Below, piece after piece: positions 7,734 through 35,514 of a stretch of DNA of 35,514 nt. Source of the stretch: a virus (taxonomy: Duplodnaviria > Heunggongvirae > Uroviricota > Caudoviricetes); the IMG/VR virus record IMGVR_UViG_2698536443_000010, positions 1-35,514 of that record; one strand, written 5' to 3'. The position numbers and the translations under genes are program-made. The first letter of the stretch is position 1. Every line of letters starts with the position of its first letter. Below the pieces are notes generated by a model, which ran no database searches, was not told the origin of the DNA, and saw nothing but the letters and a program-made list of their open reading frames with translations.

Positions 7734-8693
7734 ATGAAAATTTGTATCGACGACGGCTCCACCAACATCAAGCTGGCATGGACTGAGAACGGCGAACGCC
7801 GCAACGCCATCAGCCCGAACAGCTTCAAGTCGGAATGGTCTGCGCCGTTCGGTGGCACGCAGCCCGCGAACTACATGCTTGATGGCGTGCGCTATGGTTT
7901 TGATCCGGTCAGCGATCGCTTTGTCCAGACGACCGACACGCAATACCAATACAGCGATGTGAATGTCATTGCCATTCATCACGCGCTGGTCAAATCAGGC
8001 ATCACACCACAGGAGGTGGATGTGGTTGTCACCCTGCCACTGAGCGAGTATTTCGACACAAACGCACAGCCGGACATGGCCAACATCAACCGCAAAAAAG
8101 CGAACGTTATGCGCCCGGTGGAGTACCAGAACGGCGAAGCATTCACTATCCGTAACGTGCGGGTTATGCCTGAATCCATTCCGGCTGGCTTTAAGGCACT
8201 GGCTGACATGAGTCCGTTTGAATCCCTGCTGATTGTGGATTTGGGCGGAACCACGCTGGATGTGGCAAAGGTTCAGGGGCAACTGGCAGGTATCAGCCAG
8301 GTGTTTTGCGATCCACACGTAGGCGTTTCTCTGATGGCCGATGCCGTACTGGCGGTGATGGCCACTAACGGTATGCGCACCAGTCACCACATCGCCAATA
8401 CCATTATCGAACATCGCCATGATGAAGCCTGGCTGCGCCAGCACATCCACAATGACGCGCATTACGCCAGCCTGATGGCGGTTATTCGTGAAAAGGAAGA
8501 AACACTGAAACAACGCGTGATCCGCGCGCTGGCGGTTTTTTCGGGTTACGGGCGGGTGATGGTTGTCGGTGGAGGGGCGGAGATTGTGGCACCCGCTATC
8601 CGCGAAGCCTGCGGAGTTAATGCGACTTTCATCGCGGACGGGGTGCCACAGTTTGCTCTGGTTAATGGGCTGTACGCAATGGACAAGGAGTAA
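7734..8693 (+). CDS. parM: Actin-like segregation ATPase, ParM/StbA family
   Basis: MKICIDDGSTNIKLAW...YSDVNVIAIHHAL...VMPESIPAG...LLIVDLGGTTLDV...VMVVGGGAEI matches conserved ParM blocks of plasmid R1 as recalled. Confidence 0.85.
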   Translation: MKICIDDGSTNIKLAWTENGERRNAISPNSFKSEWSAPFGGTQPANYMLDGVRYGFDPVSDRFVQTTDTQYQYSDVNVIAIHHALVKSGITPQEVDVVVTLPLSEYFDTNAQPDMANINRKKANVMRPVEYQNGEAFTIRNVRVMPESIPAGFKALADMSPFESLLIVDLGGTTLDVAKVQGQLAGISQVFCDPHVGVSLMADAVLAVMATNGMRTSHHIANTIIEHRHDEAWLRQHIHNDAHYASLMAVIREKEETLKQRVIRALAVFSGYGRVMVVGGGAEIVAPAIREACGVNATFIADGVPQFALVNGLYAMDKE

Positions 8694-8697
8694 ACCA

Positions 8698-9009
8698 ATG
8701 ACGACACCAACCAGACGGATAAGTTTCTATCTGAAGCCTGCGGCCGTCAAGAACGAAAGCGAAGCATGCGCCTGGCTGGACAGCCTTACACCAGAAGCCC
8801 GCAAAAGCGGCCAACGCGTGGCTTTTCTGGCCGGGCTGGCACTTCTGAAAATGAATCCAGCAGAGGCTTACCGACTGGCTGCATGGGCTGACGATGAGGC
8901 GTTATCAGTGACACAAACCAGGACAGAATGCCCCGCGTCACAGCCAGTATCAACCGCACAGATAACCAGTCAGATGGCCGGAAATATCCGGGCATTATTT
9001 CCCGAATAA
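8698..9009 (+). CDS. parR: ParR-like adaptor candidate
   Basis: Immediately downstream of parM with AAGGAG RBS; RRISFYLKP...AGLALL...RALFPE resembles R1 ParR as recalled. Confidence 0.55.
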   Translation: MTTPTRRISFYLKPAAVKNESEACAWLDSLTPEARKSGQRVAFLAGLALLKMNPAEAYRLAAWADDEALSVTQTRTECPASQPVSTAQITSQMAGNIRALFPE

Positions 9010-9014
9010 CACAA

Positions 9015-9038
9015 CATCAGGGCGCATCCGCCCTGATG
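9015..9038. terminator. Hairpin downstream of parR-like gene
   Basis: Inverted repeat atcagggcg / cgccctgat with 4-nt loop; weak T tract. Confidence 0.4.
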
Positions 9039-9107
9039 ACTTTAATCCGGGAACATAAACAAGGGGGACAAAATGCAACACATTGACAGAGAAAAAGGAA
9101 AAAAAGC

Positions 9108-9326
9108 ATGAACAGAAAACAGAAACAAGAGTTGAAATACTTCTTACGTAAAGAAATTGCCAGGCTTGAAGATGCAGAGTCACAATCATCAGAAATTCCG
9201 TTCGGAATGGATATCAACGACGCCCGTATGCTTCAGGCATACCGTATAGCTCAGGCTGCACTACAGACAAAACCGTTAAATAACATACATGAAAAGTATG
9301 ATTATTTTACGGATACCGCTTGCTGA
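9108..9326 (+). CDS. Hypothetical protein
   Basis: 72-aa ORF in the A-to-cos accessory region. Confidence 0.4.
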   Translation: MNRKQKQELKYFLRKEIARLEDAESQSSEIPFGMDINDARMLQAYRIAQAALQTKPLNNIHEKYDYFTDTAC

Positions 9327-9511
9327 CATCTGAAGAACAAAAGATAGCCCAACTTTTAGGCGACGCATGGAACCTGTATTTAACATTGCCAGTTGAGCAT
9401 CCAATGGGTAGAGATGAATTTTGCCGGGCAATTCATCATTGCCAAAATATGATGTTGGCACGCCCGGCCATCAGGACGCTGGCCAGGAAGGGGCAAGGCT
9501 ATAAAAGATAA
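9320..9511 (+). CDS. Hypothetical protein
   Basis: 63-aa ORF; followed by a terminator hairpin. Confidence 0.35.
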   Translation: MLTSEEQKIAQLLGDAWNLYLTLPVEHPMGRDEFCRAIHHCQNMMLARPAIRTLARKGQGYKR

Positions 9512-9514
9512 GTA

Positions 9515-9544
9515 AAACGCCCTCCTCCATGGCGTTTATTTCAA
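9515..9544 (+). terminator. Rho-independent terminator
   Basis: Stem aaacgcc / ggcgttt with 9-nt loop, followed by tttattt. Confidence 0.6.
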
Positions 9545-9995
9545 TGCACAATAGTGCACAAATTTGCACAATTTTTTTGAACGACTTTTTGCCCTTCCGG
9601 CCCGCGTTGCGGCTGGATCCGTCAAGGATCCGTGCGTGCACAAAAAAACGCGCTTTTTCTGCGCGCAGGTGACGGGGGAACAGCCCGCGTTTCAGGGGGT
9701 AAATAGCATTCCCTGAACGATGTCGCAGCGACACAACAGAATGGCTGTATTTCTCACGCTGAGCGTGAAAAAGGCGTGAGGGCTTTTGATTTGATGGGGT
9801 GAAAGGTAAGGCCGTCAAAATCGCACTGAGGCGGCGAGAACATACAGTCAACGCGGTGGGATTGCGTAAGAGTCTGACCGTCGATGGTGGCGATAAACTG
9901 GAAGGCGTCGTGAAATTATCTGACTGATACAGGAGCTGGAGAGTCGGGGCATAAATTTTTTATGCCCCGGCGAAGCAGCAGACAAGCGAAGCGCG
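9545..9995. other. Non-coding region expected to hold cos and packaging signals (exact cos not identified)
   Basis: Position between the accessory region and portal Q as in P2; palindromes at 9722..9732, 9754..9768 and 9945..9969. Confidence 0.4.
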
Positions 9996-11042
9996 TCAGG
10001 ATGTGGGCTGGGTGTCTAACAGTGCGTAAGGGTTAAAGCGGATCACCTCTTCGCCAAGCCAGTCATTGATGTGCTTCATGGCCTCCATGACGGGCATCAG
10101 CTCGTTAATTGCGTAAACCCGCGCAGCCTTCTCCACATCACCAAACGCACTTTTTTCGCCCGGCATCGCCCCCATCAGTTGCGGCGGAACGCGGTGCGCA
10201 GCCAGCACATCATCACGGGATGCCGCCTTAACATTCATGAACTCATCCTTTGCGGTGATCTGCTGGAACGGCAAAATTTGCACCCCCTCTTTGCCCCCGT
10301 TGGGCGCATGGATGAGCACGTTTTTAAACGCACCACCACCACGCGCACCCTGTAACGTTTCTTTCAGGGAGTCCATGCTTTCGCGGTTTACCTGCGCTGC
10401 ACCGATGTAGATGATGCACCCGGCGTGGGATCCATTGTCGTAATACAGTTTTCTGAACATGTCCGCCGAATGAGACAGGCTGGCCGAGAGTAATGCGCCA
10501 AGATATTCCGGCATGCCGTAAATTTCCTGGTTAATGTCCGGATTCATCAGGTGGCACACTTTGCCAGGGCGAAACTGAAACGCGTCCTTGCCATCCTGCA
10601 CATACCACCATGATTCAAGATCGCTTCCGCGTCGCATGTATTTCGCCAGTGCGTGCCGTAATTTAAGTGGTTCGCCGAGCATATTGCTCCGAAGCTCAAG
10701 GAATGCGTTACCGAACACAAACCAGTCCAGCGCCAGCGCCGAGAAATCCTGCCGGGAAAGCAGCGGGTGCGGGATGTAGCAACCGAGCAATACATTGCGC
10801 TTAAAGTAAAGCGCAGACTGATGCCAGGACGTTTGCCGGGCGGCTCTTGCCAGACCGTACCAGTCCACCGGGGTTTCATACCACCGCCCGTTATCAGCAC
10901 AGTACATATTGTCCAGCAGGTCATGCCCGGTCAGGCGATAAGGACCATCAAATGTGAATGCACTGAGCGATGATTCTTTCCTGAGCGCATCAGCGAGATC
11001 AATGCGTGAACTCATGCGCACTTTTTTATTTTTTCTGCTCAT
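9996..11042 (-). CDS. Q: Portal protein, P2 gpQ-like
   Basis: 348-aa ORF immediately downstream of terminase P on the same strand; ATGA-type overlap with P. Confidence 0.9.
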   Translation of the reverse strand: MSRKNKKVRMSSRIDLADALRKESSLSAFTFDGPYRLTGHDLLDNMYCADNGRWYETPVDWYGLARAARQTSWHQSALYFKRNVLLGCYIPHPLLSRQDFSALALDWFVFGNAFLELRSNMLGEPLKLRHALAKYMRRGSDLESWWYVQDGKDAFQFRPGKVCHLMNPDINQEIYGMPEYLGALLSASLSHSADMFRKLYYDNGSHAGCIIYIGAAQVNRESMDSLKETLQGARGGGAFKNVLIHAPNGGKEGVQILPFQQITAKDEFMNVKAASRDDVLAAHRVPPQLMGAMPGEKSAFGDVEKAARVYAINELMPVMEAMKHINDWLGEEVIRFNPYALLDTQPTS

Positions 11043-23337: not shown

Positions 23338-23915
23338 TGACATTCAGAATGAGTGAACAATCACGGACCATAAAAATTTATAATCTACTGACCGGAACCA
23401 ATGAGTTTATTGGTGAAGGTGATGCATACATTCCACCTCATACAGGTCTGCCTGCAAACAGTACCGATATTGCCCCGCCAGATATTCCGGCTGGCTTCGT
23501 GGCCGTTTTCAACAGTGATGAGGCATCGTGGCATCTCGTTGAAGACCATCGGGGTAAAACGGTTTATGACGTGGCATCAGGGGACGCGTTATTTATTTCT
23601 GAACTCGGTCCGTTACCGGAAAATGTTACCTGGTTGTCGCCGTATGGAGAGTATCAGAAGTGGAACGGCACATCCTGGGTGAAAGATGCAGAAGCAGACA
23701 AACTATTTCGGATAAGGGAGGCGGAAGAAACAAAAAACAGCCTGATGCAGGTAGCCAGTGAGCATATTGCGCCACTTCAGGATGCCGTAGATTTGGATAT
23801 TGCGACGGAGGAAGAGGCATCGTTACTGGCTGCATGGAAGACATATCGGGTATTGTTGAATCGTGTTGATACAACAGTAGCAGCGGATGTTGAGTGGCCA
23901 GTCGCCCCACAATAA
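23337..23915 (+). CDS. G: Tail fibre assembly protein, P2 gpG-like (divergent N-terminus)
   Basis: C-terminal [12 protein letters not shown]...EWPVAPQ resembles the P2 G C-terminus; TAATG overlap with H. Confidence 0.75.
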
Positions 23916-23958: not shown

Positions 23959-24531
23959 CTATTTATACAATACAGCACCGCTCTTTTTAGTTATATATGT
24001 GCAGTTCGATGGTATATCTTTATTTATAAAAGACATTGCACCTATTTTTACATTATCCCCAATTTTACGGGATAATCCAATGATGCAACAATTAGCTCCG
24101 ATATCAACGTTGCTACCAATTTTTACTCTTGAACCAGGTATGTCACCATCTATCTGTCCAATGGTCGTATTCTGTCGTAACACCAGATTTTCACCAGCAT
24201 CAACAGCAAAATGAACAACAATTCCAGCATGATGGGGAATTGTTAACCCTTTTCCAATATTTGCGCCCAATCCAATTTCACAACCAAATTTGTTAATTAT
24301 TTTACTGTTTAACTTTTTGGCTGCTTTCTTATGTAATTTATTACCATTAATATACATTTCGTTAGCCAACCGCCACCAGAAAAGGAAATTCCGGTTACGC
24401 TGTTTTTTCTCTCTTAAAAGCCTCCAGATATCCATACGTTTCCGCCGAATTACTTCATATTTCCAGAAGTTTTTTAAATTAGTAGAGTTCCCAAATAAAA
24501 CAAAGTGAATTGCCATTAAGTAAGACAGCAC
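23959..24531 (-). CDS. Hexapeptide-repeat (left-handed beta-helix) acetyltransferase, CysE/O-acetyltransferase-like; AT-rich moron
   Basis: Isoleucine-patch repeats IGANIGKGLTIP...VKIGSNVDIGANCCIIG...KIGDNVKIGAMSFI; GTG start at 24531 after AAGGAG RBS (ORF extends to 24564; alternative ATG 24516). Confidence 0.7.
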   Translation of the reverse strand: MLSYLMAIHFVLFGNSTNLKNFWKYEVIRRKRMDIWRLLREKKQRNRNFLFWWRLANEMYINGNKLHKKAAKKLNSKIINKFGCEIGLGANIGKGLTIPHHAGIVVHFAVDAGENLVLRQNTTIGQIDGDIPGSRVKIGSNVDIGANCCIIGLSRKIGDNVKIGAMSFINKDIPSNCTYITKKSGAVLYK

Positions 24532-24687
24532 GATAATCTCCTTAATTATTATTTCAGACGACACATATTATAAGGTTAAGAGATTATAAAATCCTGTTGT
24601 TTGTTATTCAAAAACAATTTTCTGAGAAGGACATACAACAGCAAGTCGCCAGTCACCTTCATCAGGAAATTGGCGACATACGTTAAA

Positions 24688-25182
24688 TCAGAGCAGCCCC
24701 TTAACTGAGCTGGTCGCGCTATTAAGGGATGATGTCACCTTATCTTTGAAGCCGGACAACATATCGCTGAACGATGAGGATTGCAGGCGCTCCCGCAAAT
24801 CCTCATCACAGCGTTCAAGAGTCAGTGAAAATTCTATCTTTTTCGCCTTACCGTAGCGATCAAACTCGGAACGGGTCGTATTCGTTCCGGTCAGGACATA
24901 CATGCCGTAAATCTGCCCGACGCCATCAATCAAAGGCCAGGGTCGTCCTGTATACGCCTGCGTGGTCAGCAGCGACAGCGACACTTCGCCACCTGTAATT
25001 TCAGGATAAAGCACACCAGAAAGAACGATGCGATCATCACCTGCACCGATATACTGCCAGCTTGCTGAACGGTTAACGCGTTCATTTTTCACATGCCGCC
25101 AGCTTTTGTTTTGCTGTAACTGCTGATGCGGCAGCGTGCGCAGCTCAAAAACAAACATGCCGTAGATCATCATCATGGCCAT
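24688..25182 (-). CDS. U: Tail protein, P2 gpU-like
   Basis: SWRH...VNRS...GAGDD...LSG...ITGGEVSLSLLTTQAYTGRPWPLIDG...IYGMYV...LRERLQSSS...SGFKDKVT resemble P2 U. Confidence 0.9.
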   Translation of the reverse strand: MAMMMIYGMFVFELRTLPHQQLQQNKSWRHVKNERVNRSASWQYIGAGDDRIVLSGVLYPEITGGEVSLSLLTTQAYTGRPWPLIDGVGQIYGMYVLTGTNTTRSEFDRYGKAKKIEFSLTLERCDEDLRERLQSSSFSDMLSGFKDKVTSSLNSATSSVKGLL

Positions 25183-25188
25183 GACTCC

Positions 25189-28005
25189 TCAATCTTTATC
25201 GTAAAAACTGCCACGCCCGGCACGGGCGCGCCGTTCCATTTCTGCCCTGACCATTTCACCGACCAGTTTCGCCAGTTCGCGGGGATTCTGCGTAACAACG
25301 TTATGCAGATGAACATGAATTTCACCACCAAATTCGGAGGCAACAGGCTCCCGGTTACGGGAAGTTACAGGAACTGATGCCACTGGAGATCGTATAGCCT
25401 CCGCCACCGGGCGGGAGCTGGCCGCAACAACAGTGACCAGCGCCGGAGGCAGCGGAGCCGGGACCACGGGTGTGATATTAATTGCGGGGGCAGGCTTACT
25501 GACCTGCGCAATCTTCCGCTCCTGCCACTCCCCACGAACAGCAAGTGCCCGGGGCAGGTTTTTAAAGACAATATCGCCGGGGCCAATGCGTTTTTTCGTC
25601 TCCTCAACCAGCTTACCTGTGTTATCAGCAATTTTGCTGAGTCTGCGCAGCGTACCGGTATTGCTGTCTGTGAGCGGTTTATTGTCTTTGGGGTTATCAC
25701 CTCCGGTGCCATTGCCATTTTCCACAGGCTTCGGCGGATTGATTTTCGCCAGGTCCCCCTGAAGCAAGGCAACCTTGTCCTGAAGAATGGCCGCACGCTG
25801 TGCGTCTTCGATTTTCTTGCGCGCCCTTTCCGCTTCATCCGGAAGCACACCAAGCTTTTCAAGTATCCACGCCAGCGTATCCAGCAACATTTTTGCAGGT
25901 GTCAGAACAAGTTGTAACGCACCGCCAAGAACGTTACCGAATATCTCGCCAGCACTGGTACATTTATCCAGAGTTTCCTTGCTGGACTCCATCGGTGACA
26001 GCAGCGATTTAAACCAGTTAAACACCTGGCTGATCCCACTCCCGATTGCGTCAAAAACAGGACTAAACCGTTCAAAGGTTTCGCGCAACGGGGTCAGCCT
26101 TTCCATAATCCCGCTGAACACCCCGGCAAAAAATGCCCTGATGGGATCCCAGTATTTCCAGATAAGAACGGCAGCTCCGGCAAGCGCAGCCACGATAAGA
26201 CCAACCGGACTGAACAACGCCCCGATAGCGCCTCCCAGCAAAGAAACGGAACCCGTCACCATTCCCCATAGTGCTGGCAGAACCCTGACAGCATTCATTG
26301 ATCCGGTCAGGAGGGAAAAACCAAGACGCAGTTTTGCCAGCGGGCCAGCAAGCACACCAATAGCCAGCGACAACGAGCCAACCGTTGCAGTCATTGCCAG
26401 CAGTGCACCGCCTGCAATCAGTAGCTGGCGCGTCAGTGCGGGATGGGCCTGCGCCAGCGCCGTCACCTTTGATACCACACGCGTGAGCCACTGCGTGACA
26501 GAACGCAGCGGACCGTCAATCAGATCTGCAATGCGGATGCGCAACCCTTCCCATGCACTGCTGAGTGATTTCAGATCGCCGTCAAGGTTGTTGGCCATAA
26601 CCTTTGCCGTGCGTTCAGCCTCACCGCGCGCACCTTCAAGTTCTTTTCTCAGTTTGGGTAAGGAGCCGTCACCTGCCGCATCAACGAGGGCCATAAATGA
26701 TGTGAAAGCCTCTTCTCCGGCAATGTCCTTAAAGAACGATACCCGGTCAACTTCCCCGTATTTGCGGGTAGCTTTATAAAGGTCAGCCAGCACATCCTCC
26801 ATCGGACGCATTTTGCCCCCGGCATCCGAGACAGACACGCCAAGCTCTTTCAGCGCCTCTGCTGCCGCCTTTGGCGGTGATGCCAGACGAGCCAGGCTGG
26901 CACGCATTGCCGTCCCGGCATCACTCCCTCTGATACCCATATTCGCCAGCACGCCCGCCATCGCTGCGGCCTGCTCCAGCGATATTCCCAGCTTGCCCGC
27001 CACCGGACCTGCATATTTCATGGTTTCGCCCAGTGCGCGAAGGTCAGTGTTGGTACGGGTAAATGCTGCGGTGAGCGTGTCGCCAACCCGGTCCATCTGG
27101 TCAGCAGAAAGGCCGAACTGCGTCAGGATATTTGAGCCAATATCCGCCGTCTCGCCGAGATCCATGCCGCCAGCCGTTGCCATGCTCAGCACGCCCGGAA
27201 GCGCAGCCTGAATGGCCTGCGGAGTGAAGCCAGCCATTGCAAGAAATGCCTGCCCACTGGCGGCATCGCCTGCGGTGAACTGCGTTTCAGAGCCAAGTTT
27301 TAACGCCTGCTCACGCAGAGCCTTAAACTGCGGGCTGTTTTTGTCGATTCGCGTCAGTGCCTGAACGCGGGACATCTCTTTGCCGAACCCGATCGCAGGC
27401 TGTAAAAAACGCCCGGCAGCATAGCCGCCAGCCGCTGCCGCACCAATTGCCAGCGCACCACCTGTTTTCAGTTTTCCCGCGGTTTCCTGCACGCGCGAAT
27501 ACCGCTCACGCGCCCGCGTTACACGCGCAAGCGCCTGCCGTTCGCGTTCAAGCTGGTTGTTGTACTGTTCGGTGCGTCTGATGGCCTGCTGGATGGTGTT
27601 ATCGCTGCCTGTCAGGGAAATGCCGTGGCGTTTCAGCTCTCCGCCAAGCTCCCGCATTTTCTGAATTTCCCGTGTGCGCGATTCATTCAGGCGTTCAAGC
27701 CGGGTGCTTAACTGCTGCATCAGCTTTTGTTGTTTTTCGCTGAGCACTGTACCCGTGCGTTGTAACTGATTAAGGGCGTTAAGCTGGCGTCGTGCTTTCA
27801 CGATACCCGCATCCGCTTTACTGACAGCGTCGCGGGCGCGCTCAAATGAACGCGCCTGACGCTCGAGATTTTTGATCGCCCCCTGCGTTCGCTGGATGGA
27901 GTCACCAAACTGCCCCATCAGGCGGCGGGCGTTTTCGGCAGGCCGGGTCAGCCTGTCAACGGCGCTGAAAGCGACCCGGATATCAAGAGTCTTCATTGTC
28001 TGCAT
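25189..28005 (-). CDS. T: Tail tape measure protein, P2 gpT-like
   Basis: ~940-aa ORF with coiled-coil N-terminus and Gly/Ala-rich hydrophobic core, downstream of E/E'; start at ATG 28005 (alternatives ATG 27996, GTG 28050). Confidence 0.85.
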   Translation of the reverse strand: MQTMKTLDIRVAFSAVDRLTRPAENARRLMGQFGDSIQRTQGAIKNLERQARSFERARDAVSKADAGIVKARRQLNALNQLQRTGTVLSEKQQKLMQQLSTRLERLNESRTREIQKMRELGGELKRHGISLTGSDNTIQQAIRRTEQYNNQLERERQALARVTRARERYSRVQETAGKLKTGGALAIGAAAAGGYAAGRFLQPAIGFGKEMSRVQALTRIDKNSPQFKALREQALKLGSETQFTAGDAASGQAFLAMAGFTPQAIQAALPGVLSMATAGGMDLGETADIGSNILTQFGLSADQMDRVGDTLTAAFTRTNTDLRALGETMKYAGPVAGKLGISLEQAAAMAGVLANMGIRGSDAGTAMRASLARLASPPKAAAEALKELGVSVSDAGGKMRPMEDVLADLYKATRKYGEVDRVSFFKDIAGEEAFTSFMALVDAAGDGSLPKLRKELEGARGEAERTAKVMANNLDGDLKSLSSAWEGLRIRIADLIDGPLRSVTQWLTRVVSKVTALAQAHPALTRQLLIAGGALLAMTATVGSLSLAIGVLAGPLAKLRLGFSLLTGSMNAVRVLPALWGMVTGSVSLLGGAIGALFSPVGLIVAALAGAAVLIWKYWDPIRAFFAGVFSGIMERLTPLRETFERFSPVFDAIGSGISQVFNWFKSLLSPMESSKETLDKCTSAGEIFGNVLGGALQLVLTPAKMLLDTLAWILEKLGVLPDEAERARKKIEDAQRAAILQDKVALLQGDLAKINPPKPVENGNGTGGDNPKDNKPLTDSNTGTLRRLSKIADNTGKLVEETKKRIGPGDIVFKNLPRALAVRGEWQERKIAQVSKPAPAINITPVVPAPLPPALVTVVAASSRPVAEAIRSPVASVPVTSRNREPVASEFGGEIHVHLHNVVTQNPRELAKLVGEMVRAEMERRARAGRGSFYDKD

Positions 28006-28512
28006 TCCCGCTGCGAAGTGCCGCCCGCTCACGCCAGCTAACCACTTCACCGGGCGTCATCATGAAGATTTCGGCGGGCGACCAGTTAAAAATAACGGCA
28101 ATATCTGCCACAAAGTCTTCTATGTGCTCAAAGCACACAACCGTGATCAGGCTTCCGTCGCCTGTTCGTTCTTCCCGCCAGAGTCCGCACCGCTCAAAAA
28201 ATTTACGGCAACCACACATAACTGAATAAAGTCACGGGATGCCATTTTTTTGATCGTCACTTCATCCAGTCGCGGTGATGTCACGCGTGACAGCAGCGTA
28301 AACATGGCTTCCGCTTTCAGATTCAGCACATCAGACAGCGACAAATCTCGCAGAGATCCAGCCTGCTTAATAGCCCCGGAGATCTCCACATACGTGATTT
28401 TTTCGCCGCCTCGCTCAATTGGTTGGGTAAGTTTTACGCCACACTCACTGGTTTCTTTCACAGTGTCAGCAACTACCGTGTTTTCGGTATCGATGTTTTT
28501 CGTCTCTTTCAT
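27983..28512 (-). CDS. E+E' fusion produced by programmed -1 frameshift
   Basis: Heptamer T TTT TTG in the E zero frame (minus strand, 28201..28195); the -1 frame stays open to 27983, overlapping the T start. Confidence 0.65.
28147..28512 (-). CDS. E: Tail assembly chaperone, P2 gpE-like (zero-frame product)
   Basis: Position between FII and T; contains the TTTTTTG slip site near its 3' end. Confidence 0.8.
   Translation of the reverse strand: MKETKNIDTENTVVADTVKETSECGVKLTQPIERGGEKITYVEISGAIKQAGSLRDLSLSDVLNLKAEAMFTLLSRVTSPRLDEVTIKKMASRDFIQLCVVAVNFLSGADSGGKNEQATEA
28195..28201 (-). other. Slippery heptamer TTTTTTG (-1 programmed ribosomal frameshift site)
   Basis: Zero-frame codons AAT TTT TTG; -1 frame reads AAA TTT TTT GAG. 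Confidence 0.7.
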
Positions 28513-28566
28513 CAGGAAACTCCTTTCAGTCAGAGGCGACGCACTGCGCCGCCTGCATATTACTTA

Positions 28567-29079
28567 TCAGCCAAGCCCGAGCGCGGAACGGATGCGATCG
28601 GGCACAATGTCCTTGCCGTCCTTCCGGTAAATGAAGTTCAGCAGGTCAATCTCCCACAACGGGCGATCGTTAACACTCAGCTTGTAGTAGGTGTTTTTAA
28701 TGGCGTAAGTGTGTGATGTGGCTTCGCCCTGTTTGGCTTCCCCCATATCAATTTCCGTCACACGTCCGCGCATTTCGACTTCATACAGGTCGCTTTCTGC
28801 ATCGGTGTAATATTCACCCGCAAAACGCAGCAGCGTGCCGTCAATCGTGCCGCCATACTTAAGGAACAGCTCACGAACTGCGCCCCCCATGACAAAGCTC
28901 GCATCAAGCGCGGAGTCGTCCAGACCGAGATCAATACTTACCGCACCCATCATGCCACCACCCCGGTAGCTGTCGGTTTTGCGCGTCAGCTTAGGCAGAG
29001 TGACGGACGTCACCTTACCCACTTCGTTTTCACCATCCACAAACAGCGTAAAAAAGCGAAGATGTTTTGACACAGCCAT
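28567..29079 (-). CDS. FII: Tail tube protein, P2 gpFII-like
   Basis: 170-aa ORF directly downstream of FI; size and position match P2 FII. Confidence 0.85.
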   Translation of the reverse strand: MAVSKHLRFFTLFVDGENEVGKVTSVTLPKLTRKTDSYRGGGMMGAVSIDLGLDDSALDASFVMGGAVRELFLKYGGTIDGTLLRFAGEYYTDAESDLYEVEMRGRVTEIDMGEAKQGEATSHTYAIKNTYYKLSVNDRPLWEIDLLNFIYRKDGKDIVPDRIRSALGLG

Positions 29080-30263
29080 CAGGCACCTCCCAGCACCGCA
29101 AATGCGGGACCAAAGAATTCATCAGTAAACGTCTGGTAAAGCTCCATGTCTTCCAGTGGCGGAACGGGCGTATATTTGTAGCGAATACGCACACGCCCCT
29201 GACGTAAATCCGTGGTGCCGTTATCCACCACGTCATACCAGCACGACGCCCCAATCAGTTTCCCGGCAGTAACCAGTGAATCCAGTTTTGCCCTGATGGC
29301 ACTGATAACATCTTTCACGTTCGCAGGCGTCAGTGGACTGTCGATGGTTTCAAACTGCGCTTCCGCAATTGAATCAGCCAGCACCTGTGCGGTTCGGGTA
29401 TACACCTCAAAGATGTAGGCGTTCGTTTCCGGTGTGCGGTTGCCCCAGAAGCGGAACCCGTTGCGACGAATAATGGTCGTGATTTCTTTGTTGTTGAGGC
29501 TGTTGGCATCACTGTCTTCGGCCTGCAACGACCAGAACACATGCCTCGACATCCCCAGCACATTCTTAACCGGAACGTTGGAGAGTGATTTGTGCCATCC
29601 CTGCTCATGGTCAATGTACGCACGAAGGCCGCACGCATAGGCAGGCGCGGGGAACGTTTCGTTTTTGCCACTTTTCGGGTTGTAGGCGATGAAGTCCGGC
29701 CATAAGAGCATCACCTCACGTTCGTTGAATTTCTGGCGGTAGGTAATCGCATCAGCCATCGTGTCACAGCCATGACATGAGGCATACACAAACGCGCGCA
29801 GTTTACCCGCAATCACGCACAGGGATTTTGTCACCGCCTCCGTATCCAGCTCCGGCGCGGCCAGAATACGCGGACGGTATCCGATGCTTTCATCCTGCTC
29901 TGCAACAAGCAGCGCATACATCCCCGTATAGCTGCCGTCAGATTCAGAACCACCGATAACCAGTTGATCCTGCGTCTTTCCGTCTTCTTCTTTGTGTTCA
30001 GCCACGCGAACGACGATCACCTTTGTGCTCACCTGGTCTGCAATGGCCTTAAGCGCACGATAAAGCGTCCCCGTTGTCCCGCATTTTCCCAGCACGTCAT
30101 TGACGCGGGTCAGCAGTGTGGGCTTGTTCAGCGGGAACAGCTCCGCGTCCGCATCATCCGCCGTTGCCACGATACCGATAACACTGGAATCAACATCATT
30201 AATCGCTGTTACCAGGTCGGTACTTTCCGTAACACGGGCACCATGAAAACGAGTTTCACTCAT
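29079..30263 (-). CDS. FI: Tail sheath protein, P2 gpFI-like
   Basis: 394-aa ORF at the head of the FI-FII-E-T-U block; size and position match P2 FI. Confidence 0.85.
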   Translation of the reverse strand: MSETRFHGARVTESTDLVTAINDVDSSVIGIVATADDADAELFPLNKPTLLTRVNDVLGKCGTTGTLYRALKAIADQVSTKVIVVRVAEHKEEDGKTQDQLVIGGSESDGSYTGMYALLVAEQDESIGYRPRILAAPELDTEAVTKSLCVIAGKLRAFVYASCHGCDTMADAITYRQKFNEREVMLLWPDFIAYNPKSGKNETFPAPAYACGLRAYIDHEQGWHKSLSNVPVKNVLGMSRHVFWSLQAEDSDANSLNNKEITTIIRRNGFRFWGNRTPETNAYIFEVYTRTAQVLADSIAEAQFETIDSPLTPANVKDVISAIRAKLDSLVTAGKLIGASCWYDVVDNGTTDLRQGRVRIRYKYTPVPPLEDMELYQTFTDEFFGPAFAVLGGA

Positions 30264-30420
30264 AGCTTCAGCCCCTTGTATCCGTTAAATGATTCGGCAA
30301 CAATCATCACCCACCACGCGCGTAATCTCACTCCTGCGCCGTTCTCCCGCCACGGCGACAACAAAAAGCAGTAACCCCCTCCGCACGCACATGCGACCAT
30401 GCCGCACAGGGAGGGAACAG
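30264..30420. promoter_or_regulatory. Divergent intergenic region between FI (minus) and D (plus); presumed promoters
   Basis: 157 bp between divergent starts; no TGT-N12-ACA element found by eye. Confidence 0.35.
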
Positions 30421-31524
30421 ATGACCGACACCACCATGCAATTGCTCAGTCAGGGCACAGACCCCGTGAAAATGCCGGATTTTGATATTCTCGCGGAGGG
30501 TAAAACGCTGTCAGGCGTGGCAGAGCGCCTGATGAGCCTGTCACTGACCGACAACCGGGGATTTGAAGCGGACCAGCTCACCATCACGCTGGATGATGCG
30601 GATGGTCAGTTGCAGCTACCGCCACGGGGCGCGCGCCTGACGGTTCTCATTGGCTGGAAAGGAGAACCGCTGACAGAAAAAGGCACTTACATTGTTGATG
30701 AAATCGCTCACGAAGGACCGCCGGACAGGCTGACTGTTTCAGCCAGAAGCGCAGATTTTCGGGATGAATTTAACGTTAAACGTGAGGTGTCCTGGCATGA
30801 TGTGACCGTTGAGCGTGTGGTATCCGCCATCGCTCATCGGTATGGTCTGAAACCGCAAATCAGCGAAATGCTGATGGATATCGAAATCGACCACGCCGAC
30901 CAGACCGAAGAAAGCGACATGTCCTTCCTTACGCGCATGGCGGAAATGCTGGGCGCAATCACCACAGTAAAAAGCGGCAATCTGTTATTCATCATGCCAG
31001 GTGGTGGCGTGAACGCACAGGGCCAGCCGTTGCCCTCGTTCGCCATTACACGCAGCAGCGGCGATCGCCATCAGTTCCGTATTGCTGACCGCGAGGCGTA
31101 TACGGGGGTACGCGCCTACTGGCTTGATCTTAATTACGGGAAAAAGAAAAAAGTCAGCGTGAAACGCCGTAAACCGCCAAAACCCAAAAAGGAGAAAAGC
31201 AGCAGCCGTGAAGGTGATTATATGGAAGGCGCGGAAGGCAATGTGTTTGTGTTACGCAAGACTTATCAGAACGAGCAGGCAGCAAGACGCGCAGCGGCGG
31301 CAAAGTGGCAGCAGCTACAACGCGGAGCCGCAGCGTTCTCCATCACACTGGCACGTGGACGCGCAGAACTCTACCCCGAAATGCATGGCACGGTAACAGG
31401 CTTTAAAAGCGAGATTGATAATCAGGACTGGATTATTGCGAAAGCCGAGCACACCATTGATAACAGCGGCTTTACCACGCAGCTTGAGCTTGAGGCAAAA
31501 ATCCCGGAATGGATAGCAGAATGA
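30421..31524 (+). CDS. D: Late control / tail protein, P2 gpD-like
   Basis: LSLTDNRGFEADQL...RSADFR...SWHD...FLTRLAE...ITRSSGDRH...YTGV...REGDYM...NVF...KWQQLQRG...FTTQLELE resemble P2 D; GGGAGGG RBS before ATG 30421. Confidence 0.9.
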   Translation: MTDTTMQLLSQGTDPVKMPDFDILAEGKTLSGVAERLMSLSLTDNRGFEADQLTITLDDADGQLQLPPRGARLTVLIGWKGEPLTEKGTYIVDEIAHEGPPDRLTVSARSADFRDEFNVKREVSWHDVTVERVVSAIAHRYGLKPQISEMLMDIEIDHADQTEESDMSFLTRMAEMLGAITTVKSGNLLFIMPGGGVNAQGQPLPSFAITRSSGDRHQFRIADREAYTGVRAYWLDLNYGKKKKVSVKRRKPPKPKKEKSSSREGDYMEGAEGNVFVLRKTYQNEQAARRAAAAKWQQLQRGAAAFSITLARGRAELYPEMHGTVTGFKSEIDNQDWIIAKAEHTIDNSGFTTQLELEAKIPEWIAE

Positions 31525-31688
31525 GACTCTTAAATGTATTAGTCCAGACACGTACTAGCGGGCTAAACGGCACAGTCTTATCTGACCATCTGCCCCTAAC
31601 ACAGAGCAGACGGTCCTTGATCTTACCCACTAATAATGGACGCGCGACTAATATAATTTATTGCTTTTTATTTATACCTCACTGAGAT

Positions 31689-32324
31689 TTAGCGAGCTAA
31701 TATATTCAAAGAATTTAACAATTGAGTGTCGAGTGTTTCAGTTGCAGGAATCGGTAATCCATTCGCAATGCGGTAATTTTTCACAGACAGCCTTGTGGAT
31801 GGCCCCATTATGCCGTCAATATTTCCGTTATAAAATCCCCTGTCCAGCAATGCGAACTGAACTCGCATAATCAATCGCTTACGTTTCTCTGCATCAGAAG
31901 CAAGCCCATTACTCGTACGGTTAACCTCTGAAGTTCCAACAGAACTCGTGTTAGTGGTTCTATTATTATCGTTAGAACGAAGTGCACGCACCGAGGAAGA
32001 GGACGATGAGGAACTTGCACCTGAACTTGAAGAACCAGATGAACGTGGTGAGCTGTATGTTTTTGGATAATAGGGGGTACTTCCACCATAGTATCCACCA
32101 CCTGATGAGGATCTATGAGAGCTATGGCTCCTATGAGAGCTATGGCTTCGATGCCCTGCGATATAAAATGGGACTTCCGTGTTAAGTGGAGCTATCACTA
32201 AATCATGCTCATTAAGAGTCATACCAGGTAAATCACTCGCTCCTGTAGATGAATCGCTTGCCCATACAGAATTGTTGAGAGCCAAAAATCCCGGAAGTAG
32301 AGCAGCAAAATTAAACTTTTTCAT
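31689..32324 (-). CDS. hxsA: His-Xaa-Ser repeat protein (HxsA-like): signal peptide, HRS/HSS repeat tract, Ser/Gly-rich linker, peptidoglycan-binding-like C-terminal domain
   Basis: MKKFNFAALLPGFLALNNSVWA signal peptide; HRSHSSHRSHSSHRS; C-terminal LIMRVQFALLDRGFYNGNIDGIMGPSTRLSVKNYRIANGLP; ATGA overlap with upstream radical-SAM gene. Confidence 0.7.
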   Translation of the reverse strand: MKKFNFAALLPGFLALNNSVWASDSSTGASDLPGMTLNEHDLVIAPLNTEVPFYIAGHRSHSSHRSHSSHRSSSGGGYYGGSTPYYPKTYSSPRSSGSSSSGASSSSSSSSVRALRSNDNNRTTNTSSVGTSEVNRTSNGLASDAEKRKRLIMRVQFALLDRGFYNGNIDGIMGPSTRLSVKNYRIANGLPIPATETLDTQLLNSLNILAR

Positions 32325-33433
32325 AAAATTGGTCTCGGTGATTGATGAAAACGGCCTTTTGAGGAACTGAAATAGCCAGCACAGGAAGGCTTCTGAGTAC
32401 ATTCATCACATTCTTTTGGATAGTAATTTTTCCAATCAGAGATCGACTGAACAGCAAGCTCCCTAGCCCTTTCAGGAAGATAACACAAAGGATAATTAAA
32501 AATTGTCAGAGGTATGCCTGACCTGTATGCAGCGTCTATGGCAGAGATTATTTTCTCACTATAACTACTGTGATCAATGAAGATGGTGGACCAGTTTTTT
32601 CGTGCCCAACCGATAGGCTCCAACCCCATAAGGGAAATCTGATTGATGTTGGAGAACACACGGCCAGCGAATTCTACAATATCATCCAATTCGGTATAGT
32701 TAGCCAGTGTAGGAATAACTCTAAGTTCGATATTAATCCCCAAGTTTCCTGCATTGATTAACCCTTTAACCGTTTCATTAAATGCGCCATCACTCCCTAC
32801 CAGATGATCATGCACAAGTGGTCTTGATGAGTAGAGCGGGATACCAAAGGTGATTTTGATCTTTTTGCTTCGCTTTGCCATTTCCTGTGTAAAGTTGATA
32901 TCAGCAAATTTGCGTCCGTTTGTTAAAACATGTAAAGCAGTATCTGGTGAATTCTCGATGATAAAATCAATGAAGTGAAGGAAGTCATCCCCATATAGCA
33001 AAGGTTCACCACCGCTGACCCCAACAACTCCGTTCAAGCCAAATGAAGCTATAGCAAGAGCTGATTGGGTAAGTAGCCAGTCATCATTTATTTTCTTTGG
33101 TGGCTGCGAACAAAACAGACACAAGTTATTGCAGCGTTCCGTAACTAAGACAGTATTATGATTGGCTTTGCGTGACAGAATAACGCGTATCATATTGCCA
33201 TTGTTGATTATCCCAATATCTCCATCTTCAATTGACTCAAATAATTCAGTGCTAATAACAGAGAAATCAAAGCATGGTGGAATGGCATCATTATTGCCTT
33301 CAGCAACTACTAGCAAATTGGGCAAAAAGAATAAAGGGTTCACTGGTTTTTGTTTGCATAACCGATAGAACCCCGTGGGCACGTTCTCTGTAGAAGCAAA
33401 ATGAAAGATATCGTTCCTGATAACCTCAGACAT
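32321..33433 (-). CDS. hxsB: Radical SAM enzyme with SPASM-like C-terminus (HxsB-like maturase; B/C assignment tentative)
   Basis: CNNLCLFC (CX3CX2C), GGEPLL motif, C-terminal Cys cluster CDECTQKPSCAGYF. Confidence 0.75.
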   Translation of the reverse strand: MSEVIRNDIFHFASTENVPTGFYRLCKQKPVNPLFFLPNLLVVAEGNNDAIPPCFDFSVISTELFESIEDGDIGIINNGNMIRVILSRKANHNTVLVTERCNNLCLFCSQPPKKINDDWLLTQSALAIASFGLNGVVGVSGGEPLLYGDDFLHFIDFIIENSPDTALHVLTNGRKFADINFTQEMAKRSKKIKITFGIPLYSSRPLVHDHLVGSDGAFNETVKGLINAGNLGINIELRVIPTLANYTELDDIVEFAGRVFSNINQISLMGLEPIGWARKNWSTIFIDHSSYSEKIISAIDAAYRSGIPLTIFNYPLCYLPERARELAVQSISDWKNYYPKECDECTQKPSCAGYFSSSKGRFHQSPRPIL

Positions 33434-34814
33434 ATGCCCATCCTTTTAGCATCTCAGCCTTCGAACCACCCTCTGAGATGCAGTTCATCAGATACCTGAA
33501 CATCCCCTTGTGATATTGACAAAACGTTGAACGACTCCTATCACCGACAGGCTCACCCTGTACACTTATGTTCTGGCATGGATCTGAACCACAAAATGGT
33601 TGATATGCACATGTATCACAACCTGGCAGAGCAAAATTGAACGATGAACTCAATACTGCGTTATAGTAAGGACTATCAGAAAATGATAGCGTCTTAACTT
33701 CACCCGCACTGAACTCCGTTTCAGGATTCACCTTCTGCAACATACGGCTCTCATCGCTACCATATACTCGACCGTCATAATTGAAAAGAATACTGTTAAG
33801 CACGACTCCACTTGGAGACTTTAAATCCGCATAACCACTAAAACCGGGATTGAAGATCCTTTTCAGATGAATGGAGGCCGAATGTTCCACAACCCTTATC
33901 CCTTCATTATTAATCTTAAGGATTTCATCTATCAACGAGGCATAGAAGCTGAAGTATTCGTCCATAGAAAAGGTGAAAGAAGCTTTTTGTGCAAACCCAT
34001 AGGGACTAACAGGTCGGATAAACATGTCCTTGAGACCAAGAGACAAGTGAGCCTGAACAATCGATTCAGGACGTTTGATAAGCTCTTTAGTAACTGTAGT
34101 AACCGTTGCAACGCGGCCAGCACCTAAAGAGTGTTTGATAGCCTCTACCCCTGACACTGTTCTACTGTACGCAAGCCCACGACCAAGAATTCGATTACTG
34201 TTGTGAACAACTTCCTCACCATCAAGCGACACAGAGAACGTTATGTTCCGGTCTCTCGACCATTCAATCATATCCTCATTCAAGACGGACAGACTTGATG
34301 CCACCACCATCTCAAAATTGGTTCTTCCCAGCGTTTCAGCACATTGATCATAGATGCTCTGAATTAAATCAAACCGCAAGAGAGGCTCCCCACCCTGTAT
34401 CTCTATTTTGTAAGGTGGCGTTGATAGTTTTTTAATAGCCGAAATAATATCGGGGATGAGCTCAGGATTTAGGTCGTAACCTGAGGCATTAACAGAAGCT
34501 CTACTAACCTGGCAATACTTGCATGTATGGTCACAACGTAATGTGGGTACAATCATGAAAATTGGCCTGACAGCCAGTTCATTCATCAATCGTTTTGCAA
34601 AAGCAGAACTTAAAGCATAGGGAGTTATAGCAGATGAGCTTTCACTGGTTATGAAAAGCTTACTTTCTAGCACGTTTGATTGCTCCGAACTAATTCGCTC
34701 ATCAGAAAGATCAATAAGGTCTTGCTCACCAATGAAATGATGAAAACCTGCAAGGTTGCTTATAAACACCTGTCCATTAGGCAATCTGTCAAAATTAAAT
34801 GGCATCAATTCCAT
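33426..34814 (-). CDS. hxsC: Radical SAM enzyme with SPASM-like C-terminus (HxsC-like maturase; B/C assignment tentative)
   Basis: CDHTCKYC (CX3CX2C), GGEPLL motif, C-terminal CDTCAYQPFCGSDPC. Confidence 0.75.
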   Translation of the reverse strand: MELMPFNFDRLPNGQVFISNLAGFHHFIGEQDLIDLSDERISSEQSNVLESKLFITSESSSAITPYALSSAFAKRLMNELAVRPIFMIVPTLRCDHTCKYCQVSRASVNASGYDLNPELIPDIISAIKKLSTPPYKIEIQGGEPLLRFDLIQSIYDQCAETLGRTNFEMVVASSLSVLNEDMIEWSRDRNITFSVSLDGEEVVHNSNRILGRGLAYSRTVSGVEAIKHSLGAGRVATVTTVTKELIKRPESIVQAHLSLGLKDMFIRPVSPYGFAQKASFTFSMDEYFSFYASLIDEILKINNEGIRVVEHSASIHLKRIFNPGFSGYADLKSPSGVVLNSILFNYDGRVYGSDESRMLQKVNPETEFSAGEVKTLSFSDSPYYNAVLSSSFNFALPGCDTCAYQPFCGSDPCQNISVQGEPVGDRSRSTFCQYHKGMFRYLMNCISEGGSKAEMLKGWAYV

Positions 34815-35128
34815 TATGAAAGCCTCTCATCAACACTGCGAAGCACTTTATGGACAATAGAGTCTCTCAACGCCCCTGTTTTATGCTGTAGCTTTTCTCG
34901 CAAAGAGTAATCATTAAGCAGCCTATCGAATTCATAAAGGAATTTGGGATTATCGTTTTCAAAAGAGATTATCCAGTGGGAAACGTCTTCATGGAGTTTC
35001 CATCGAGTAAGCGGAGTCATCCAATATAGACTATTGCGTATAACCCATTCAGAATATAGTTCTTTCTCAAACACTCTTTCGCTCATTGCAATTATCTTCC
35101 AATACAAATATTCATGATCAGCAACCAC
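34814..35128 (-). CDS. hxsD: HxsD-like small protein with LLNDYSLRE motif
   Basis: FDRLLNDYSLREKLQ matches the LLNDYxLRE signature; first gene of the operon; start uncertain (GTG 35128 or ATG 35086). Confidence 0.65.
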   Translation of the reverse strand: MVADHEYLYWKIIAMSERVFEKELYSEWVIRNSLYWMTPLTRWKLHEDVSHWIISFENDNPKFLYEFDRLLNDYSLREKLQHKTGALRDSIVHKVLRSVDERLS

Positions 35129-35162
35129 TTTAAAGCGGATTTTTCCTATGGCAACAATAATA

Positions 35163-35182
35163 TAACATATCCATAGATATGT
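35163..35182. repeat. Perfect 20-bp palindrome AACATATC-cata-GATATGTT in the hxsD / ogr divergent intergenic region
   Basis: Read directly; candidate operator. Confidence 0.6.
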
Positions 35183-35338
35183 TACAGATGCCTTGTTTCC
35201 CGTTGACTAATACATCACAACGTTAGTAATGGCTATCACAATTGTGAACTTCCACTTTTCACACAAGACAAGCTGTTAATTGGAATCTGTATCAGTACAA
35301 CTTAGAATAGAGGAAGCACCACAGTAAGGGAGGTCGCT

Positions 35339-35509
35339 ATGTTCCGTTGTCCACTTTGTGGCGCATCTGCCCGTATCCGCACTAGTCGTCCGGAAAATGA
35401 TTCAAACACTGTGCGGCAAAAGTGGATTTGCCCCTATATTTCCAGACATCTGTTATCACTTAACCCATTACAAGCCCGCTGCCGCAGATATTCCCGTGGC
35501 GAGCGATAA
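35339..35509 (+). CDS. ogr: Ogr/Delta-family late transcription activator, divergent or possibly frameshifted (56 aa)
   Basis: N-terminus MFRCPLCGASARIRTSR resembles P2 Ogr MFHCPLC..ARTSR; strong RBS AGGGAGG; C-terminal half lacks the expected second Cys pair. Confidence 0.55.
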   Translation: MFRCPLCGASARIRTSRPENDSNTVRQKWICPYISRHLLSLNPLQARCRRYSRGER

Positions 35510-35514
35510 CCCAG

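Follow-up and report, generated by a model that had tools for sequence, protein, structure and literature searches.

A complete hxsDBCA defense operon between D and ogr of a P88-like prophage and the probable inverted-repeat ends that frame it

The window analyzed here (the whole 35,514-nt stretch of IMG/VR record IMGVR_UViG_2698536443_000010) is a prophage of Escherichia coli that carries, between tail gene D and the ogr gene, a complete hxsDBCA operon. The nature of this cargo is settled: it is the known and already characterized HXS anti-phage system, in a slot routinely occupied in the genus of this phage. Regarding its arrival, we consider it likely that the operon belongs to a lysogenic-conversion cassette that invaded the D–ogr junction of a P88-like phage by means of a non-autonomous inverted-repeat cassette, with duplication of the target ACTTAGA, and whose ends have since decayed. 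The prophage itself is a P88-like member of the Peduoviridae (Xuanwuvirus/Gemsvirus) and not P2 proper, its best matches being P88, phiSM, and P884B11 (Xuanwuvirus) and 500465-2 (Gemsvirus). A sequence-only reading of the window had placed about 3.8 kb of AT-rich DNA between the end of D at 31524 and the start of an ogr-like gene at 35339. These coordinates are right: the D stop codon lies at 31522–31524, the ogr-like ATG at 35339 opens a frame that begins MFRCPLCG, and the 3,814 bp between them have a GC content of 0.41 versus about 0.55 for the phage (0.39–0.45 versus 0.52–0.59 in the flanking phage genes in 500-nt windows). The same reading took the insert for horizontally acquired cargo devoid of integrase or transposase, which is borne out, as only hxsDBCA is found inside.

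In P2, the 81 bp between D and ogr hold the ogr promoter. This gap measures 80–82 bp and is never occupied in P2 proper (79 of 79 IMG/VR loci with a D at least 98% identical to P2 gpD), so that the earlier statement that ogr directly follows D holds for these phages. It does not extend to the P88-like genus, where the D–ogr site is not an unusual place for cargo as had been claimed. We compared 77 P88-like loci having both D and ogr. Of 80 IMG/VR loci retrieved for a D with 99% identity or more, 73 qualified; the window and three phage records complete the set. The junction is empty in 44 of them, with a gap of 44–48 bp, and occupied in 33, with inserts of 995 to 3,814 bp. These inserts form at least 16 DNA clusters of unrelated cargo, all AT-rich (GC 0.32–0.43). 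Besides hxs, they encode a PDC-S06 ATPase (PADLOC, 918 bits), a PifA/KAP NTPase (217 bits), two PIN-domain proteins, a DUF3800 protein, a ParA-like ATPase, a SEC-C motif protein, and a protein with a weak HEPN match; several of these kinds of cargo are defense-like. The published phages 500465-2 and 520873 also have other genes at this junction. With 33 of 77 junctions occupied by at least 16 kinds of cargo, D–ogr is therefore an ordinary hotspot, by the very yardstick that the sequence-only reading had set, specific to the P88-like genus and unusual for P2 proper. It is distinct from the classical P2 hotspots, Z/fun between G and FI and the TO region between A and Q, where the window cargo does not lie. 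The sequence-only reading had likewise named G–FI, and the stretch between A and cos, as classical sites; those reported for P2-like defense cargo are A–Q, G–FI or downstream of L, and int-proximal sites (PMC9122126; 10.64898/2026.02.27.708500; 10.1101/2024.10.15.618418). The D–ogr junction resembles these hotspots (Rousset et al. 2022, PMC9122126; both preprints) in being a small locus between conserved phage genes with a fast turnover of defense systems, and differs from them in its position, the described sites being other than D–ogr. In these papers, the exchange mechanism is left open.

An alignment with P88-like relatives, proposed by the sequence-only reading as a way to define the junctions, was run and placed them at 31528–31534 and 35300–35306. 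Empty D–ogr sites read GAGCA ACTTAGA ATAGCGG, with a single ACTTAGA in 42 of the 44. In occupied sites, the left boundary reads ...GAGCA ACTTAGA followed by TGTATTAGCTCAGAC...AATCTGACAGTCCGCTCTGTGCCAGAAGCGGAC..., and the right boundary ...TCCGCTCTTCGCTCAAAGCGGACTGTCAGTTGGAATCTGAGCTAGTACA followed by ACTTAGA ATAGCGG... and then the ogr ribosome-binding site. Across the 16 cargo types, these boundary sequences are conserved in every occupied site and missing from the empty ones. The consensus left boundary resembles the reverse complement of the consensus right boundary (score 48, compared with 17.1 ± 2.9 for shuffled sequences and a maximum of 32 in 2,000 shuffles; z 10.7); in direct orientation, the z value is 2.6. 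When single cassettes are considered, the inverted similarity is significant in L078 (z 11.5), L070 (z 4.0), and L028 (z 2.8) and not in the others. In addition, a hidden Markov model (HMM) derived solely from the right ends failed to detect the left ends on the opposite strand. As both this model and most single cassettes are negative, the claim of inverted repeats rests on the consensus, on the three well-preserved cassettes, and on independent copies of the ends. Among the 14 other cargo types that were read, 12 have two 7-mers in agreement at 5–7 of 7 positions; the agreement is 3–4 of 7 in L017, L038, and L047. Thus, where no flanking direct repeat had been reported from the window, a 7-bp duplication and inverted-repeat ends exist at the level of the family, which are seen only by comparison with relatives.

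The same ends were found far from D and ogr. By pattern scanning, we identified the right-end sequence in other surroundings, where homology stops exactly at ...GAGCTAGTACAA, and an HMM built from D–ogr left ends only finds inverted pairs of ends around unrelated cargo elsewhere. A 15-nt pattern scan of IMG/VR returned mostly chance matches, the element being present in only 17 of 119 new loci. The wider spread was followed with an 84-nt query, and species genomes were scanned with a 21-nt pattern. The element is present in 1,489 of 5,426 complete E. coli genomes, at 1,903 places, as well as in 68 plasmids, 49 phage records, and at least 120 loci of IMG/VR viral contigs. In species genomes, the 21-nt pattern scan identified 25 loci in over 20 Enterobacterales and one Acinetobacter. 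The ends are imperfect inverted repeats of about 90 nt with the termini TGTATTAGCTCAGAC... and ...GTCTGAGCTAATACA (TGTA...TACA), as in the cassette-end sequence TGTATTAGCTCAGACTTGACCTGACAG. Two types of ends are distinguishable, type 1 (...CTGACAGTCCGCTCTGTGCCAGAAGCGGAC) and type 2 (...CTGACAGTCTGCTTTGAGCGAGGAGCGGA). One end of each type is present per cassette in the four copies compared in detail and in the D–ogr consensus. Of these four, L208 is located in a tRNA-Ser island and carries a short-pAgo-like defense set; L209, which sits in the G–FI interval of a classical P2-type prophage, holds a FlxA-like gene; L210, adjacent to a prophage integrase, has one gene without assigned function; and L121, after the tail-fiber assembly gene of a lambdoid-like phage, holds a methyltransferase gene with one for a SMEK-domain protein. 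Three plasmid-borne copies (L239–L241) hold single small genes. In Acinetobacter sp., a near-empty copy of 731 bp (L231, 4981–5711) has near-perfect ends, the duplication CTTAATA, and a 112-amino-acid open reading frame (ORF) as its only one. It is the smallest form, resembling a miniature inverted-repeat transposable element (MITE), and it lies outside the Enterobacterales.

These cassettes are flanked by perfect direct repeats of 7 bp, whose sequence varies with the site: GCTAACT, CATTAAT, GTAACAA, AATAATT, CTTAATA, CACTATT, GCTAATA, TATTAGC, GCTAAGG, CTATATC, TTTCATG, and CATAAAT. As different 7-mers adjoin near-identical termini, they bear the signature of a target-site duplication, produced by a staggered cut and fill-in, rather than that of a shared recombination core. 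Three copies, in E. coli and Pantoea, occupy the same site (...gaggctaact) with the duplication GCTAACT and near-identical ends (L208, 2931–7084; L219, 1582–7838; L374, 214–4366). The cargo at this site differs, L208 holding the 4.15-kb pAgo-like defense set and L219 6.26 kb of LysR/MFS-type regulatory and transport genes with a GC content of 0.56. As L208 and L219 share site, 7-mer, and ends but not cargo, the cargo appears replaceable inside a fixed frame. The search for an autonomous element among the larger cassettes found none, those of 5.6 and 6.3 kb holding metabolic genes, and no transposase was found in the plasmid contexts. Pairs of ends 7.4–9.7 kb apart in lambdoid-like contigs of IMG/VR (L339, L396, L400, L387, L393, and L432) were considered as one large element and rejected, as they span phage core genes (Q antiterminator, DUF968) and their 7-mers do not match; each pair seems to stem from two independent insertions or to consist of solo ends. 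IS100, of the IS21 family of insertion sequences (ISs), was likewise rejected as a source because its end is unlike the cassette repeat.

In the window, these features appear in a decayed state. The left copy of the 7-bp direct repeat is TCTTAAA (31528–31534), at a position that reads ACTTAGA or ACTTAAA in sister cassettes and corresponds to the one ACTTAGA of empty sites; the right copy, from the sequence and the junction alignment, is ACTTAGA (35300–35306). Between them lie a putative left inverted repeat with a type 1 end (TGTATTAG...ATCTGAC...hairpin; 31535–31627, plus strand), which aligns with the repeats of L078, L070, and the P2 Z region, and a putative right inverted repeat with a type 2 end of a short form ending in ...CAGTACA (35233–35299, minus strand), whose homologs at the right of sister cassettes are well preserved. 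Both were also recovered by an HMM built from eight ends outside D–ogr only and scanned over both strands of the window. Its three best matches fall at the two junctions in the expected orientation: a palindromic hairpin at 31587–31615 (E 4e-4) and 31536–31613 on the plus strand (E 0.035) at the left, and 35237–35288 on the minus strand (E 0.68) at the right, this third-best match being weak on its own. A search of Rfam identified no known RNA family at the cassette boundaries.

The right boundary also contains a promoter-like site for ogr, TTGGAA-17-TAGAAT (35280–35308, plus strand), detected by scanning. Its −35 element is inside the right repeat, and its −10 element (35303–35308) overlaps the 7-mer and the phage flank. 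Across the 16 cargo types, no positions of the right boundary are better conserved than TTGGAR and TAGAAT/TAAAAT, and in empty sites only the −10 is kept. It thus seems that the insert gave rise to a hybrid ogr promoter, in which the right repeat was co-opted as the −35 element. Such a promoter would be needed once D and ogr are 1–4 kb apart, with cargo mostly in antisense orientation between them.

An inverted-repeat frame is already known at the G–FI hotspot of P2. Among the phage matches to our sequences are the entries AJ512676, AJ512677, AJ512680, and AJ512681, which correspond to the "proviral Z-region" of P2-EC30, -31, -46, and -48. Two of these 2004 GenBank records, AJ512677 and AJ512680, are annotated with a "left inverted repeat" (3–115) and a "right inverted repeat" around ORFs for a "putative lysogenic conversion protein." The annotated repeats align with the cassette ends found elsewhere and with the D–ogr boundaries. 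The title of an article of the same year by Nilsson, Karlsson and Haggard-Ljungquist suggests site-specific recombination as the way in which such inserts move. Searches for the repeat sequence and, by keyword, for such cassettes returned nothing relevant in the literature covered, which did not include this Z-region paper. The 7-bp duplication, the D–ogr site, and the spread to plasmids, islands, and Acinetobacter are not mentioned in recent hotspot papers. The Z-region inserts (AJ512676–AJ512681) have left and right inverted repeats homologous to those of the D–ogr cassettes; both also hold AT-rich cargo, with one to a few genes and none for mobility, and have the right repeat just upstream of the next phage gene. 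The Z-region inserts differ by their location, at G–FI in Peduovirus, whereas the window cassette is at D–ogr in Xuanwuvirus.

Mobile insertion cassettes (MICs) and MITEs are non-autonomous derivatives of DDE transposons with passenger genes. Like them, the cassettes described here have terminal inverted repeats, a target duplication of fixed length, no transposase, and cargo of variable length; unlike them, they have unusually long ends (about 90 nt) of two distinguishable types, and a parent IS or transposon was not identified. An integron gene cassette was rejected, as the element has two repeats at opposite ends, 3.7 kb apart, and not a single 3′ attC; no IntI was seen in Pfam, NCBIfam, and PADLOC scans of the region. 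When the sequences were read by eye against the consensus sites, integron attC and XerCD/dif were also rejected, as were the hix/gix sites of invertases.

The cargo, which the sequence-only reading had not identified, is an intact hxsD-hxsB-hxsC-hxsA operon on the minus strand, with contiguous or overlapping genes. The four genes were assigned by NCBIfam equivalog models with curated cut-offs, all of which are exceeded by full-length matches. The first of them in window order, hxsA (31689–32324; TIGR03979, 161 bits versus a cut-off of 122), whose start was set by analogy with annotated homologs, encodes the effector precursor, with a hydrophobic leader MKKFNFAALLPGFLALNNSVWA, judged by eye to be a signal peptide, and five His-Xaa-Ser repeats HRSHSSHRSHSSHRS. 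Its peptidoglycan-binding domain is borderline (Pfam PG_binding_1, 22 bits versus a gathering cut-off of 23). Two radical SAM maturases follow, HxsC with the motif CNNLCLFC (32321–33433; TIGR03977, 397 bits versus 268, profile positions 2–292 of 292) and HxsB, a radical SAM/SPASM protein with the motif CDHTCKYC (33426–34814; TIGR03978, 560 bits versus 370, profile positions 1–466 of 466); both have the CxxxCxxC cluster motif and match Pfam Radical_SAM. The small accessory protein HxsD is encoded at 34814–35086 (TIGR03976, 90.6 bits versus 50), in an ORF that can be extended to 35128. A consensus scan identified two candidate sigma-70 promoters for the operon at 35127–35185 on the minus strand (GTAACA-17-TATTAT and TTGCCA-16-TAAAGT). 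PADLOC v2, which has no Hxs model, reported in the region only weak matches of the radical SAM proteins to pVip.

All four genes are needed for the activity of the HXS system, in which HxsB and HxsC mature HxsA and the processed protein acts in the periplasm, blocking the entry of phage DNA; it inhibited 110 of 113 coliphages (Li et al., Nat Commun 2026, PMC13128918). The window operon has the same four genes in the same order, with two radical SAM maturases, and its HxsA likewise combines five HxS repeats with a signal peptide and a peptidoglycan-binding domain. It differs in being phage cargo, the operon tested experimentally coming from another strain, MEM (PMC13128918). Activity of the window copy is assumed from homology, as MEM does not carry the D–ogr cassette; HxsB and HxsC of the window share 92–94% protein identity with the island variants examined.

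Of the 5,426 complete E. coli genomes, 46 contain the entire 3,814-bp block with its boundaries at 99.4–100% identity, among them E. coli O26:H11 11368; the block is also found in IMG/VR viral contigs (L010). All 46 genomes have the D-hxs-ogr arrangement. Overall, 152 complete E. coli genomes carry an hxs operon, so that about 30% (46 of 152) have it in the D–ogr prophage slot. This agrees in number with the published survey, in which 23% of E. coli hxs operons overlap predicted prophages and 77% lie outside them (PMC13128918). The "chromosomal" copies that we examined are on mobile islands too: of five copies of hxs variants with 75–91% identity, four lie in islands with an integrase and the fifth in a relaxase-bearing island, and none is in a P2-like phage. 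In three E. coli chromosomes (L085, L086, and L087), the island operon is followed by a DUF6119/TIGR04141 gene with integrase genes nearby; relaxase genes are close to it in L085 and L087 and ABC-three-component genes in L085 and L086. In a tRNA-Thr island, the homology of a 90%-identical hxs unit covers window positions 31609–35246 and thereby runs past the operon into the inner part of the type 1 repeat (...CACAGCCAGAAGCGGAC), which is cut there by an IS30-like element. This extension into the left repeat suggests that hxs moved together with the repeat frame as one unit.

Taken together, these data are the basis of the explanation that we consider likely. A non-autonomous cassette, whose terminal inverted repeats are imperfect and about 90 nt long (5′-TGTA...TACA-3′) and which is mobilized by an enzyme supplied in trans, would have invaded D–ogr and duplicated 7 bp of the target, ACTTAGA. 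The frame would then persist in the genus with alternative cargoes, exchanged among phages by recombination in D, ogr, or the repeats, and the right repeat would have been recruited as the −35 element of the ogr promoter. With hxs as cargo, HxsB and HxsC would mature HxsA, which, according to the literature, acts after export to the periplasm by arresting incoming phage DNA, so that the lysogen would be protected from other phages. Judged from footprints, the argument for insertion by a trans-mobilized cassette with a 7-bp duplication is strong for the family and weak for the window copy. Several observations weigh against this explanation. In the window, the left and right ends are no more similar to each other than shuffled sequences (z −0.7), the HMM signals of the repeats are weak (E 0.035 and 0.68), and the 7-mers agree at only 5 of 7 positions; the case for the window therefore rests on the sister cassettes at D–ogr. 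All D–ogr cargo types share the target 7-mer, which would be expected equally from a single ancient insertion with later replacement of the cargo and from repeated insertion. No transposase or recombinase was found in or beside any cassette examined, so that mobility is deduced from footprints only. On the side of the cargo, strain MEM is not among the 46 genomes carrying the hxs cassette at D–ogr. The sequence-only reading had considered the mechanism of insertion unknown; the inverted-repeat ends and the 7-bp repeat now provide a lead. As its repeats are decayed, the window copy is probably a fixed, immobile fossil and not an active element. A broader proposal, which we advance tentatively and regard as possible rather than probable, is that these ends belong to a widespread, still active family of non-autonomous cassettes, driven in trans and delivering defense and accessory genes to phage hotspots, plasmids, and islands. 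It would span Enterobacterales and Acinetobacter, and the phage hotspots served would be P2 G–FI, P88 D–ogr, and lambdoid tail-fiber ends.

Other explanations dispense with such an element. The D–ogr junction could be merely permissive, its cargo being swapped between co-infecting or co-resident P2-like phages by homologous recombination in the flanks, and the conserved boundaries could be ordinary intergenic DNA, namely the ogr promoter and a terminator after D. D and ogr are indeed 95–100% identical among loci with different cargo, cargo-linked variation extends beyond the repeats, to the ogr leader and the surroundings of the D stop codon, as expected from the exchange of whole segments, the right boundary is promoter-like, and published work credits recombination with hotspot turnover. 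We nevertheless regard this explanation as unlikely, as it accounts neither for the inverted similarity between left and right boundaries (z 10.7), nor for the presence of exactly one 7-mer in the empty site, nor for the same ends with site-specific 7-bp duplications in unrelated replicons. Flanking recombination could explain the spread of existing cassettes, not the origin of the frame.

Conservative site-specific recombination, in which a tyrosine recombinase would use the inverted repeats as binding arms and a 7-bp stretch as overlap, seems to us decidedly unlikely. Seven base pairs is a typical overlap length for these enzymes, a joined circle would form a lox-like site with inverted arms around a 7-bp spacer, several cassettes adjoin integrase genes, and a single 7-mer serves all D–ogr cargo types. 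However, at least 11 different perfect 7-mers flank near-identical termini, which is the mark of a target duplication, and TG...CA termini with sub-terminal repeats are typical of DDE transposons; moreover, no recombinase is consistently linked to the cassettes. Capture of host or island DNA at the prophage end, by aberrant excision or through insertion of a larger island, is highly improbable. The block does lie near the end of the prophage with only ogr beyond it, and related hxs operons are found in integrase islands at ssrA and tRNA-Thr. Yet phage genes are present on both flanks, and the whole block with its boundaries recurs at 99.4–100% identity in the 46 genomes and in IMG/VR viral contigs. 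Furthermore, homology to the island copies ends near the operon ends (query positions 162–178 to 3666), and no bacterial flanking genes were seen between D and ogr in related prophages.

On the left of the cassette, gene D (late control D/baseplate hub; 30289–31524, plus strand; Pfam Phage_GPD, E 4e-17) is 95–97% identical in nucleotide sequence to D of P88, phiSM, and P884B11, and its true start is likely the ATG at 30421. Unlike in P2, gene D and the FI-FII-E-T-U block are on opposite strands. U, T, E, FII, and FI occupy 24688–30263 on the minus strand, whereas D is on the same strand as H and G. In P2, the genes from FI to D share a single orientation; compared with it, the tail block is inverted here, as it is in P88, 500465-2, and 520873. 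On the right, an Ogr-like frame does begin at 35339, as the sequence-only reading had it, but it is only a 28-codon 5′ fragment (35339–35422, plus strand; Pfam Ogr_Delta, residues 3–18) followed by an IS2. By tblastn, the stub matches residues 1–29 only, with 96.6% identity to Ogr of phage 500465-2. The IS2 end (35423–35514), which runs off the window, is 100% identical to IS2 copies in many records. The ogr/IS2 junction after codon 28 is common to only 3 of the 46 genomes with the hxs D–ogr cassette; in other copies, IS2, IS3-family, ISVsa5, IS30, or IS66 elements are found inside or beside hxs. Ogr is the late-gene activator of P2-type phages, and its interruption by IS2 therefore probably disables late-gene activation and grounds the prophage, with the defense operon still intact.

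Three further features of the window deserve mention. A 201-amino-acid ORF similar to hexapeptide-repeat acetyltransferases (EpsC/CysE/WcaB-like; 23959–24564, minus strand) lies in a patch with a GC content of 0.35 between the tail-fiber assembly gene, which ends at 23915, and U. It is a second AT-rich moron, possibly modifying the O-antigen or the surface; the search for inverted-repeat cassette ends detected none in its surroundings. The 3′ end of the tail-fiber assembly gene contains a match to the Rfam family IS009 (RF02111; 23680–23878, plus strand; 188 bits versus a gathering score of 117). The region expected to be the A–Q hotspot (7734–9996; A and Q named by position only) holds ORFs of 319, 148, and 126 amino acids, none of which has a PADLOC match, with a GC dip to 0.44 at 9001–9500.

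The cargo of this prophage is thus ordinary, a known defense system in a phage hotspot, and it is the route of its arrival that may matter. The occurrence of inverted-repeat ends and 7-bp duplications at two P2-type hotspots, in lambdoid-like contigs, on plasmids, and in islands makes the question of mechanism testable. If true, an active cassette family would be the missing mechanism for the rapid turnover of defense systems at phage hotspots.

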